Source: a virus. From it: 32,000 nt of DNA. Below the pieces are notes generated by a model. It was not told the DNA's origin and did not search any database. It was given only the letters and a program-made list of their open reading frames with translations. Shown here in pieces: positions 15,326 to 17,578 of this stretch (within the stretch, counting starts at the first letter, position 1; every line of letters begins with the position of its first letter). Position numbers and translations under genes: made by a program. Location: the IMG/VR virus record IMGVR_UViG_3300003321_000691, positions 1 to 32,000 of that record, one strand, 5' to 3'.

Positions 15326-16636
15326 GTGAATCGCTGGGAAATCGTTGCCGGTCTCATCGCCCTCGTTGTCGGCCTCTGGCAGCAGCTTCGTAGTGTCCTG
15401 GGCTGGTTTGGCTCACTGGTCGTCTGCTCGCGACGCACCGACCGCGACATCGCCGGACACCTGCACGCCTACCTCGCGAACAAGCGCCCGAGCCTCTCGG
15501 TCTCGCCCGCGTACGCCGCGGTGAACAACTACTACTACGTCATCCCTCTCGGTCGACGGGCCACGGTGATGTGGCAGGACCGCGTCGAGTCGGGTAGCCA
15601 GCTCATGTGGGTTGGGCGCCGGCCGCTGTGGTTCGCGAAGCTGGAGGGCAAGGACAACGCCAAGACGCAGGCGATGGAGTACAAGTTCTCCTTCATCCGT
15701 GGCACGATCGACTGGGAGCAGCTCCTGATCGACTCCGATCAGTGGGTTCGTGATCAAGGCGAGGCGTGGACGTCGACGGTCAGCCGCCGCCGCGTGGTCT
15801 ATCACTTCGGCGAGCGCCTCATGGCCGCCAGTAATGGGGACAACAATCCCGACGACAAAACCAACCACAAGCACGATCAGGGCTGGTCCGGCTTTGGCGA
15901 GGCCAACAGTCGCCGGCTCCTGCGCTGGAAGCCTGAAGACATCGGTGCTCCGCCCGCTCGCTCGCTCGACGGCATCGCCTTGCCCGCCGAGCAGCTCGAC
16001 GTCGTGGGGCAGGTGCGTCGTTGGTACAGCTCGCGGCAGTGGTACACCGACCACCGCATTGCGTGGCGGCTCGGGCTCATGCTGCACGGCGGCCCCGGCA
16101 CCGGCAAGACCACGTTCGCTCGCGAGGTCGCCTCCGATCTCAACATCCCCGTCCACGTCATCGACCTGGCCACGATGTCGAATGAGGATCTGCGCAAGGC
16201 CTGGGACGAGTCCGTCGCGGATGCGCCGTGCATGGTGCTCCTGGAGGACGTGGATGGCGTGTTCCGTGGCCGCGATAACGTTGCTCCGCAGAGCTTCGCG
16301 GCCGGAGGATTGACGTTCGATTGCCTCCTCAACTGCGTCGATGGCGTGGAGCGCACCGACGGTGTGTTGCTGGTGGTGACGACGAACAAGCCCGACACCG
16401 TGGACCCTGCGCTCGTGCGCCCTGGCCGAGTGGACCGTGTGGTGGAGTTCGGCAACCTCGACTTCCCCTGCCGCCTCAAGGTCGCCCAGCAGATCCTCGG
16501 CAAGACGCCTGAGGCTGCCAAGGTCGCCCAGGAGAGTGGTGACCTCCCCGCCGCCAAGTTCTCCGAGATGTGCTGCCGCATCGCCCTCGATCGGCTGTAC
16601 GAGAAGCAGACCCCGAGCGAAGGGCCGTACCGGTGA
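15326..16636 (+). CDS. BCS1-like AAA+ ATPase with an N-terminal hydrophobic helix
   Basis: Walker A LMLHGGPGTGKTT and Walker B CMVLLEDVDGVF are present. The BCS1-type block is GLTFDCLLNCVDGVERTDGVLLVVTTNKPDTVDPALVRPGRVDRVVEF. The N-terminus WEIVAGLIALVVGLW is hydrophobic. A roughly 230-aa pre-AAA domain matches the BCS1 architecture. Confidence 0.8.
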   Translation: MNRWEIVAGLIALVVGLWQQLRSVLGWFGSLVVCSRRTDRDIAGHLHAYLANKRPSLSVSPAYAAVNNYYYVIPLGRRATVMWQDRVESGSQLMWVGRRPLWFAKLEGKDNAKTQAMEYKFSFIRGTIDWEQLLIDSDQWVRDQGEAWTSTVSRRRVVYHFGERLMAASNGDNNPDDKTNHKHDQGWSGFGEANSRRLLRWKPEDIGAPPARSLDGIALPAEQLDVVGQVRRWYSSRQWYTDHRIAWRLGLMLHGGPGTGKTTFAREVASDLNIPVHVIDLATMSNEDLRKAWDESVADAPCMVLLEDVDGVFRGRDNVAPQSFAAGGLTFDCLLNCVDGVERTDGVLLVVTTNKPDTVDPALVRPGRVDRVVEFGNLDFPCRLKVAQQILGKTPEAAKVAQESGDLPAAKFSEMCCRIALDRLYEKQTPSEGPYR

Positions 16637-16992
16637 GTCATCCACTCGACACCGACGCGCTGTACCACTGCCAGTGCGGCGAGTGGCACTACAAGACCGA
16701 GAGCGCGTATCCTCCCTGTCGTCGGTGCCCCCGATGCGATCACGGCCTGGACAACCACAACGAGTACGGTTGCTTCGTCAAGGAGGGACGCAACGGTTGT
16801 GACGACGCGTATTGCATGTGCATCTACGTCCCGCCCGCCATCAAGGACCAGCAGCGCGAGGCACGTCGCGCCGAGGCGCTGAAACAACCCTGCAAGACGC
16901 ATCCTCGGTACACCATCGTTCACCCGCCACGCAGCGCCTGTGAGACGTGCTGGCGCCTCTGGGTCCGAGTCAACCCCAAGCCGTTGAAATAG
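16633..16992 (+). CDS. Cys-rich putative zinc-binding protein
   Basis: GTG 16633 overlaps the AAA+ stop (GTGA). Translation: SHPLDTDALYHCQCGEWHYKTESAYPPCRRCPRCDHGLDNHNEYGCFVKEGRNGCDDAYCMC..CETCW. Confidence 0.6.
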   Translation: MSHPLDTDALYHCQCGEWHYKTESAYPPCRRCPRCDHGLDNHNEYGCFVKEGRNGCDDAYCMCIYVPPAIKDQQREARRAEALKQPCKTHPRYTIVHPPRSACETCWRLWVRVNPKPLK

Positions 16993-17023
16993 CCTGCCCA
17001 CCGCTTGGCGTTGTCCAGAGGCG

Positions 17024-17578
17024 ATGAATCCATACGCCACCGCAATCATCGTGCGGGTCCCTGAAATGCCGGATGTGCACCTCTGTGTCGGAGACTCGAT
17101 CAACTTCGGTGGTCGTAATAGCTTCCGGGTACTGGATGAGGATGGTCAGCTCATCCTGAGCCGCACCCCGACGCGTAAGCGTTGGCTGGATTTGCTTGGC
17201 CTCTCCGTGGTGTCTGTGCTTGTTGGCTGCGCCCACTGGACCAAGCCCGAGGTCGCGGCCGAGGCCCTGGCACTCGCCGCCACGGCTACGGACTGGATGC
17301 AAACCGAAGGCATCACCGCAGCCTGTCAGGAAGGCAACTTCGTGATTGGTGAGTGCGGCCAGAACATCGCCCCCCGCTACTACTTCCCGCTCGCGATGGT
17401 AGGACATCTCGCCATCGCCGCTGTCCTACCCCACAGGTACCGCCTGGCGTGGAGCACCGTACTCCTCGGCAGCGAGGCCAATCAGGTCTGGATGAACCAG
17501 TTTGTCGCCACGCACGAGGACCTGATGTCTGTGTCTCGTAGCGTGCTGACTGTTCCGCCCCCTCGGAGGCTCCCGTGA
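17024..17578 (+). CDS. hypothetical membrane protein (two predicted TM segments)
   Basis: 184-aa ORF with hydrophobic stretches WLDLLGLSVVSVLVGCAHW and YYFPLAMVGHLAIAAVLP. Confidence 0.55.
   Translation: MNPYATAIIVRVPEMPDVHLCVGDSINFGGRNSFRVLDEDGQLILSRTPTRKRWLDLLGLSVVSVLVGCAHWTKPEVAAEALALAATATDWMQTEGITAACQEGNFVIGECGQNIAPRYYFPLAMVGHLAIAAVLPHRYRLAWSTVLLGSEANQVWMNQFVATHEDLMSVSRSVLTVPPPRRLP

Follow-up and report, generated by a model that had tools for sequence, protein, structure and literature searches.

The stretch of viral DNA considered here comprises positions 1 to 32,000 of the IMG/VR record IMGVR_UViG_3300003321_000691 and is referred to as the window (32,000 nucleotides, nt, in full). 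Between 15326 and 17578 it carries a gene whose product is well supported, by profile comparisons and a structural model, as a divergent but genuine BCS1-family AAA+ ATPase, followed directly by two small genes. The contig carrying the ATPase gene is 107,904 base pairs long (~108 kilobases, kb) and does not belong to a jumbo phage. GC content of the window is ~65%, and genes were judged to be real by the GC content of their third codon positions (GC3). The three genes, each an open reading frame (ORF) with lengths given in amino acids (aa), are as follows.

15326-16636, plus strand: BCS1-family AAA+ ATPase, 436 aa, GTG start (ORF, GC3 0.85)
16633-16992, plus strand: Cys/His-rich protein, 119 aa (GC3 0.79), overlapping the ATPase gene
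17024-17578, plus strand: membrane/lipoprotein-like protein, 184 aa (GC3 0.75)

An initial annotation of this DNA had given the coordinates, the 436-aa ATPase, a GTGA overlap between the first two genes, the 119-aa Cys/His protein and a 31-nt gap before the third gene, all of which we find as claimed. It had also read the three genes together as a membrane-associated module for remodelling or export, and here the outcome is different, as shown by the neighbourhoods of the relatives. The mitochondrial Bcs1 (BCS1L) is an AAA+ heptamer that translocates the Rieske protein in its folded form (PDB 6SH3, 6UKO, 8TP1, 9GS2) and is usually regarded as a mitochondrial invention. No other AAA+ machine is known to take proteins across a membrane in the folded state.

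The ATPase of the window can be divided into three parts, and the positions of its domains and motifs are listed below.

15332-15421, plus strand: N-terminal hydrophobic helix, residues 3-32, core IVAGLIALVVGLW, putative membrane anchor (model and hydropathy)
15422-15940, plus strand: beta-rich BCS1-specific N-terminal (middle) domain, residues 33-205 (hhalign, Foldseek)
15953-16633, plus strand: AAA module, residues 210-436 (motifs, Pfam AAA)
16088-16111, plus strand: Walker A, GGPGTGKT
16232-16249, plus strand: Walker B, MVLLED, residues 303-308
Residues 352-354 of the ATPase: sensor-1, TTN
16418-16435, plus strand: arginine fingers, RPGRVD

The motifs GGPGTGKT, MVLLED, TFDCLLNCVDGV and TTN are all present, as is the DPALVRPGRVD quoted in the initial annotation. 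In an alignment of 66 full-length relatives (A1), which is also the basis of the AlphaFold2 model and of the hhalign profile described below, residues G258, G260, K261, E307, D308, N354, R365 and R368 are invariant. By its Walker A, sensor-1 and arginine fingers the AAA module is catalytically intact. The Walker B motif ends in Glu-Asp (E307 and D308) in all 66 sequences, an ED order which, within the classical AAA proteins, has been described for Bcs1 and YjoB alone (PMC9565160). The region of pore loop 1 reads DLA[ST]MSNx[DE]L in the family and aligns with LSERGLTDDRL of BCS1; N286 is found throughout the family and W293 almost throughout, and, like Bcs1, the region has no canonical aromatic-hydrophobic-Gly motif. 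At the N-terminus, the AlphaFold2 model places a single long helix over residues 3-32. Its hydropathy maximum (Kyte-Doolittle scale, 19-residue span) is 1.61, against a family median of 1.5 and a median of 1.22 for eukaryotic BCS1, and a hydrophobic helix is found at this place in 65 of the 66 relatives, the exception (P0007) being a protein with a later start. Pfam recognizes only a generic AAA domain (residues 251-376, 2.9e-22), and in PHROG the protein matches phrog_7485 at 3e-42.

The family assignment was examined by structure and by profile, and both point to Bcs1. The AlphaFold2 monomer model has a mean predicted local distance difference test score (pLDDT) of 90.8 and a predicted template modelling score of 0.80, and it consists of a 30-residue N-terminal helix, a beta-rich domain (33 to ~200) and the AAA module. 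When this model was compared with the PDB by Foldseek, ranks 1 to 11 were all full-length Bcs1 structures (8tp1, 8t7u, 6uks, 9gs2 and others) with expectation values (E) of 9e-22 to 1e-17 over 417-460 columns, alignments that exceed the AAA module alone, while p97 N-D1 and YjoB follow at ~1e-15 (4.6e-15 for YjoB) and the proteasome ATPases are also behind Bcs1. Per-domain scores from phmmer against the PDB agree, with 97-99 bits for Bcs1 (query residues 211-373) vs ~68 bits for Cdc48/p97; the total scores are led by the two-domain Cdc48/p97 proteins. Comparison of the A1 profile with one made from 22 eukaryotic BCS1 sequences by hhalign gave E 2e-55 over 356 columns and aligned the BCS1 signatures WYxxRGIPxRRGxLLxGPPGTGK, TFxxLLNxxDGV and DPALxRPGRVD with each other, and the N-domains alone, compared in the same way, gave a probability of 90% (E 1.7e-6, 121 columns). 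The BCS1-like class named in the initial annotation therefore holds against the alternative of an FtsH- or ClpX-type clade, for the Foldseek ranking, the per-domain scores and the hhalign comparison including the N-domain all favour Bcs1. The FtsH model TIGR01241 reaches just 80 bits against a cutoff of 600, within the AAA module only, and the window protein has no protease domain. Membership of the defence ATPases IetA/IteA was also considered and rejected (NF042959, 43.7 bits against a cutoff of 510; PADLOC IetA, 2.8e-11, AAA module only), and no protease gene of the kind that would be an IetS-type partner lies beside the ATPase in the window.

Compared with Bcs1/BCS1L itself, the window ATPase has the same architecture of N-terminal hydrophobic helix, beta-rich Bcs1 domain and single classical-clade AAA module, agrees in the ED Walker B and in the absence of a canonical pore loop 1, and has in common the motifs WY..RGIP.RRG, TF..LLN..DGV and DPAL.RPGRVD. 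On the other hand, overall identity is ~20%, and an ATPase encoded by a phage would have another substrate and another membrane. A second point of comparison is YjoB of Bacillus subtilis (PDB 7W42), which has a Bcs1-like N-domain fold, belongs to the same AAA subclade and carries the same ED Walker B, but gives a weaker Foldseek match than Bcs1. YjoB is a cytoplasmic, chaperone-like hexamer without a membrane helix and is restricted to Bacillales (PMC9565160).

Virus-encoded BCS1-like ATPases are already recognised, and the window protein is a new and divergent member among them. Iyer et al. (2021; PMC7824862) reported BCS1 orthologues from each of the three major jumbo-phage groups and proposed that, close to the membrane, they bind and translocate folded proteins while the head is being assembled. 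The statement of the initial annotation that there is no defined role in phages is therefore fair as far as function is concerned, but such orthologues had already been reported and discussed (PMC7824862). In the BFVD collection, BCS1-like ATPases of phages and giant viruses show the same full-length fold as the window ATPase and several are annotated as BCS1; the AAA-type ATPase of Tenacibaculum phage PTm1, for instance, matches at E 2.5e-23 over ~480 aligned columns. Another virus-encoded example is the CcrColossus protein named “AAA+ ATPase and BCS1 domain protein”. BLAST matches to proteins of cultured phages cover the AAA module only, at 26-39% identity, and, unlike these BCS1-like proteins, the subfamily of the window ATPase is known only from metagenomes.

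Within that subfamily the distribution is wide. With only the first 210 residues as phmmer query, 91 clusters (50% identity) were recovered from 1.84 billion representatives, mostly of ~400-500 aa, the remainder being mainly shorter and probably partial, plus two longer ones. At least 82 full-length relatives are present in a large protein database, where they carry generic AAA-type Pfam domains only and lie mostly on metagenomic contigs of 60-290 kb, and a further 74 viral loci, on contigs of ~5-570 kb, were identified when IMG/VR was scanned for a sequence pattern. A relative is also encoded at 240 loci in GTDB, taken as one genome per species; figures for taxonomy and neighbourhood refer to the best 80 of these 240 loci (L082-L161). 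Planctomycetota account for ~74 of the best 80, including Pirellulaceae, Planctomycetaceae and Gemmataceae, and examples are Stieleria marina (L092, 6001-7314), Aeoliella sp. SH292 (L104, 6001-7278) and Zavarzinella formosa (L133, 6001-7425). These cellular homologues, annotated as “AAA family ATPase”, are 30-38% identical to the window protein over residues 1-434 and are alike in helix and N-domain. They are chromosomal stand-alone genes, those of Gemmataceae being sometimes longer (~510-530 aa), and no phage genes were seen around the homologue at the Aeoliella locus. A search of the literature on Bcs1 in Planctomycetes found no paper linking the two.

Whether the ATPase belongs with the two small genes was addressed by a survey of neighbours in 78 phage and metagenome loci and 80 bacterial (GTDB) loci. 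When the neighbours in the window were searched by tblastn against the 78 loci, the Cys-rich protein was found in none (0/78), and the 184-aa protein (in L002) and the RNA ligase that follows it in one locus each. All-against-all clustering of ORFs from the 78 loci gave no genuine neighbour family in more than five, only the ATPase itself and its shadow ORFs recurring in more than eight, and in the 80 GTDB loci no neighbour family exceeded nine. The commonest Planctomycetota neighbour cluster (nine loci) was considered as a partner and rejected, since its distances and orientations are variable. The closest relative is L079, with an ATPase 74% identical, where the ATPase gene comes after the nuclease-like gene and is followed in turn by genes for a 65-aa CxxC protein, for a protein of 73 aa, for the lipoprotein homologue and for the Cys-rich homologue; both small genes are thus near the ATPase, within ~1.1 kb downstream. 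In L002 (ATPase 48% identical) the lipoprotein homologue is on the other strand and the Cys-rich gene is absent, and neither small gene is found in L080 (58%), L081 (50%) or L001 (46%). In 17 of 77 loci the ATPase gene overlaps the ORF after it by four bases, the proteins encoded there being mutually unrelated, and the genes downstream of the ATPase are likewise unrelated to one another in 76 loci.

Enrichment by class was sought as well. Small CxxC proteins, counted as small proteins with at least two CxnC pairs, were tested as a class downstream of the ATPase and rejected (3/76 against 20/529 other genes, p=1.0), and hydrophobic ORFs are not enriched near it, with 27/432 at 1.5 kb or less and 70/1024 farther away (p=0.73). 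Pfam matches of the 148 nearest neighbours are scattered over early or auxiliary functions (ThyA, ThyX, PhoH, gp32, methylase, RlaP, phosphoesterases, Apyc1), and no capsid, portal, tail or lysis family is among the matches listed (the 25 commonest of 54 families). On these comparisons the three-gene module of ATPase, Cys-rich protein and membrane protein is not supported: linkage is not conserved in the 78 and 80 loci, and the two small genes are near-orphans, which would be fast-evolving accessory genes that happen to adjoin the ATPase in this lineage. As a separate observation, the ORF directly 3' of the ATPase in the IMG/VR contig L074 (~7328-7855, plus strand) opens with a putative SecA-type “SEC-C” zinc motif, DPCPCGSKRKFKACC, noticed by eye; this is a single case.

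The first of the small genes overlaps the end of the ATPase gene (...TAC CGG TGA), starting at GTG 16633 so that the two share GTGA, and a Shine-Dalgarno-like motif, AAGGG, lies 7 nt upstream of this start. By its arrangement it is predicted to be translationally coupled to the ATPase, but it is not a conserved partner. The 119-aa protein contains 12 Cys and 7 His and has no match in sequence searches of Pfam, PHROG, NCBIfam, PADLOC or the PDB; a search of 5.8e9 proteins returned only itself. Its sole homologue is encoded in L079, four genes after the ATPase, with 60% identity and a common core CPxCxHxLDxHNEYGCFVKEGRxGCDDAYCxC followed by CKxH...ACExCW. This Cys/His core fits a small multi-zinc-binding protein, which is the probable nature of the product. 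Single-sequence AlphaFold2 gave an unusable model (pLDDT 39.2).

The second small gene starts 31 nt past the stop of the Cys-rich gene, with AGAGG just upstream of its ATG. The initial annotation had described the product as a protein with two transmembrane segments; two hydrophobic segments are indeed present (~residues 54-72 and 119-137), but a lipobox and the signal peptides of its homologues indicate that “lipoprotein-like” is the better description, and the protein is predicted to belong to a small phage lipoprotein family. The relevant features are as follows.

17219-17230, plus strand: lipobox LVGC in the 184-aa ORF (alignment with two homologues)
L079, 2082-2468: homologue of the 184-aa protein, 62% identity
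L002, 2267-2692, minus strand: homologue of the 184-aa protein, opposite in strand to the ATPase and 3.3 kb upstream of it

The segment in the window protein is RKRWLDLLGLSVVSVLVGC, corresponding to VKVLALCLLFAC followed by SWTK in L079 and to MMKTLVAVAVFLAVLLAGGC followed by GGWTK in L002. The lipobox Cys and the WTK after it are conserved in all three, and RKR and a hydrophobic stretch precede the lipobox of the window. Also conserved in the family are two Cys and a second hydrophobic stretch, which has a central His. The L079 and L002 homologues begin directly with the lipoprotein signal peptide, whereas in the window ORF ~50 residues come before the corresponding signal-like segment, which has no canonical start codon just upstream; either this N-terminal extension of ~50 residues is real or the start is misplaced. 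Like its neighbour, the 184-aa protein has no match in sequence searches of Pfam, PHROG, NCBIfam, PADLOC or the PDB and is the only protein returned from 5.8e9.

The wider surroundings of the ATPase gene in the window include the following genes.

14774-15286, plus strand: upstream gene, 170 aa, with a PDF...ECK motif spotted by eye
17575-18123, plus strand: RNA ligase (nucleotidyltransferase domain), 182 aa (Pfam RNA_ligase 6.9e-14, phrog_548 7.7e-31)
18124-18735, plus strand: 203-aa protein, phrog_14949 (unknown function), 3' neighbour of the RNA ligase
18824-21463: Prim-Pol/VapE primase-helicase, 879 aa, after the 203-aa protein
5611-8007, minus strand: large terminase
27610-30828, plus strand: helicase-like ORF with intein, 1072 aa

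With the terminase, the primase-helicase, the intein-bearing helicase-like gene and a trypsin-like protease also encoded in the window, its phage origin is secure. No match to 15326-17578 was obtained by megablast in 50,697 phage records, and tblastn of the ATPase, terminase and primase against phage records found distant relatives only (<40% identity). The initial annotation had placed an RNA ligase after the membrane protein gene, and the Pfam match confirms it; it had also placed a PD-(D/E)XK nuclease immediately upstream of the ATPase, of which the PDF...ECK motif can be seen, but the 170-aa protein matches only phrog_21138 (unknown function, 3.6e-14) and nothing in Pfam, NCBIfam or the PDB, so that it is treated here as a putative, unverified nuclease-like gene. 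Its homologues are near the ATPase in L002 and L079 only. Since the minus-strand genes end at 14758, the nuclease-like gene and the ATPase gene open a rightward block, in which the ATPase gene is second. The gene is thus at the head of a replication and nucleotide-metabolism block and outside the virion and lysis modules. A scan of 14000-19000 for promoters and terminators found none above shuffled expectation.

It is probable, although far from certain, that the gene encodes a stand-alone accessory ATPase of the BCS1 family, a membrane-anchored ring that serves as chaperone or translocase for a folded protein and has no dedicated partner gene. By analogy with Bcs1, the short N-terminal helix would anchor the protein in the cytoplasmic membrane of the host with its bulk in the cytoplasm, and homology suggests that it assembles as a ring. 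Binding and hydrolysis of ATP would open and close a central chamber, holding and releasing a folded protein, which would be held, remodelled or passed on, while no unfolded chain would be threaded; the ATPase may thus work on the cytoplasmic side of the membrane, as a chaperone or as a translocase. Given that there is no conserved phage partner and that Planctomycetota carry chromosomal copies, the ATPase may act on a protein of the host or on a phage protein that varies. The contact motifs with which Bcs1 binds the Rieske protein are EWR and DDR (PMC12219900). As these are not kept, a Rieske-like substrate is unlikely, which argues for a different substrate and not for a different fold.

Several observations weigh against this stand-alone, membrane-anchored BCS1 reading. 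Profile searches, which had been suggested with the initial annotation, matched Pfam AAA but not BCS1_N (PF08740), and neither this model nor PF25426 matches the window ATPase even at E<=1. The 25 families most often matched by the 66 relatives include neither of the two models, and the precomputed domains of P0002-P0083 comprise PF00004 and other AAA-type models without them, while eukaryotic BCS1 carry both. There is an insertion of ~60 residues ahead of the AAA module relative to Bcs1. The position of EWR is occupied by R-W-K in the window ATPase, the family keeping only the Trp (43/66), and that of DDR by N-E-D with no Arg; of the substrate-contact motifs there thus remain a conserved Trp and one acidic position, and substrate handling may differ. 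The strictly hydrophobic core of the N-terminal helix has just ~13 residues, so that a peripheral or monotopic attachment is possible. Genes in the comparison loci were delimited only crudely, as ORFs, and the GTGA coupling, together with the presence of both small genes in L079, leaves room for a lineage-specific functional link. Finally, no experimental work on a phage BCS1-like protein came up in a search of the literature.

That short hydrophobic core is also what lends some weight to a soluble or peripheral chaperone of the YjoB type, specific for certain phage or host proteins in the cytoplasm and without any translocation. YjoB, a cytoplasmic hexamer with Bcs1-like N-domain, subclade and ED Walker B (PMC9565160), is indeed among the structural matches (E 4.6e-15), but it lacks such an N-terminal helix, whereas 65 of the 66 relatives have one at the same position as the genuine BCS1 anchors and with a hydropathy equal to or above theirs, and full-length Bcs1 is ahead of YjoB by ~7 orders of magnitude in E-value; we therefore regard this reading as unlikely, though deserving of attention. 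Somewhat less probable is a membrane-proximal factor of virion assembly which delivers folded proteins into the assembling head or portal, as Iyer et al. (2021) proposed for the jumbo-phage BCS1 orthologues (PMC7824862). In its favour, the whole fold is common to many phage and giant-virus proteins, but the ATPase gene lies in the replication-side block, and the terminase, ~7 kb away, is encoded on the other strand. Capsid, portal and tail are not among the neighbour Pfam families listed (25 commonest of 54), and close homologues are chromosomal in many Planctomycetota with no phage context. The same low standing is given to a remodeller for host takeover or counter-defence, which would extract or inactivate a membrane protein or defence complex of the host or exclude a superinfecting phage. 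The early or auxiliary gene surroundings, one locus with a neighbouring anti-Pycsar gene Apyc1, the weak similarity to IetA/IteA and the lack of a phage-encoded partner, which fits a host-encoded substrate, speak for it; yet the IetA/IteA likeness is confined to the generic AAA module (43.7 bits against 510), no association with known anti-defence genes is conserved, and the cellular homologues of Planctomycetota argue for a housekeeping activity that phages have borrowed.

A bolder version of the translocase would make the ATPase a single-gene exporter that carries a folded, possibly metal-loaded, protein to the periplasm independently of Tat, Sec and holin, in phages and Planctomycetota alike, with the Cys/His-rich protein as its cargo here. 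We consider this very improbable; if true, a counterpart of the mitochondrial Bcs1 pathway would for the first time be known from a prokaryote or virus, which would offer a clue to the origin of that pathway. Least likely of the rivals is the three-gene module, in which the ATPase, the Cys-rich protein and the membrane protein act as one to remodel or export the folded Cys-rich protein or the lipoprotein. It draws on the GTGA overlap and the Shine-Dalgarno-like motif, which suggest co-translation, on the two small genes within ~1.1 kb downstream of the ATPase in L079, and on the natural Bcs1 substrate being a folded Cys/His metal-cluster protein (PMC12219900). Against it, the small proteins have no relatives but themselves in 5.8e9 proteins, their order in L079 is reversed with two other genes between them and the ATPase, L002 has its lipoprotein gene upstream on the opposite strand and no Cys-rich gene, and L080, L081 and L001 carry neither; the downstream genes of 76 loci are unrelated and not enriched for any class, and four-base overlaps are common (17/77) with unrelated genes.

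The stand-alone ATPase is of interest for several reasons. A complete BCS1 architecture occurs in a non-jumbo phage of ~108 kb, on at least 74 IMG/VR contigs and at ~240 GTDB loci, and everywhere as a stand-alone gene, so that compact prokaryotic and viral versions are on offer for testing whether translocation of folded proteins predates mitochondria. The ATPase may represent a new class of membrane-acting factor of phages. The wider prokaryotic and viral spread, especially in Planctomycetota, is the more interesting thread and may bear on the origin of mitochondrial Bcs1. For annotation, the Cys-rich and lipoprotein genes should not be described as partners of the ATPase.

A few further observations concern the genes around this locus. 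RNA-repair-type genes are found near the ATPase in few loci, namely RlaP (3 loci), LigD 3'-phosphoesterase, metallophosphoesterases and HD domains (e.g., L022 7228-8292 and L050 7236-8366), in addition to the RNA ligase of the window, and these are too few for an association. The 203-aa protein (18124-18735) has a 57% identical homologue in L081 (7111-7767), one gene upstream of the ATPase, and a 29% identical one in L075 (826-1404, minus strand); it is the only neighbour found in more than one distant locus, which is probably residual synteny. The 556-aa gene at 12287-13957 was considered as the counterpart of the gene upstream of the ATPase in L080 and was rejected when tblastn gave no confirmation. 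To the left of the nuclease-like gene are two tandem paralogues on the minus strand (13887-14285 and 14282-14758, 132 and 158 aa), which are 30% identical (E 2e-19), have in common the motif C(K/R)YR...G.KCAAGH(I/L)IPD and overlap by 4 nt at stop and start; the start codon of the 14282-14758 gene is only 15 nt from the divergent start at 14774. The intein of the helicase-like ORF (27610-30828) lies within residues 156-531 and matches Pfam Intein_splicing (3e-14) and LAGLIDADG_3 (1.6e-10), a homing endonuclease. Two tandem tRNA-Ile genes, 5463-5539 and 5541-5615 on the plus strand, both with the unusual anticodon AAT, adjoin the 3' end of the terminase gene.

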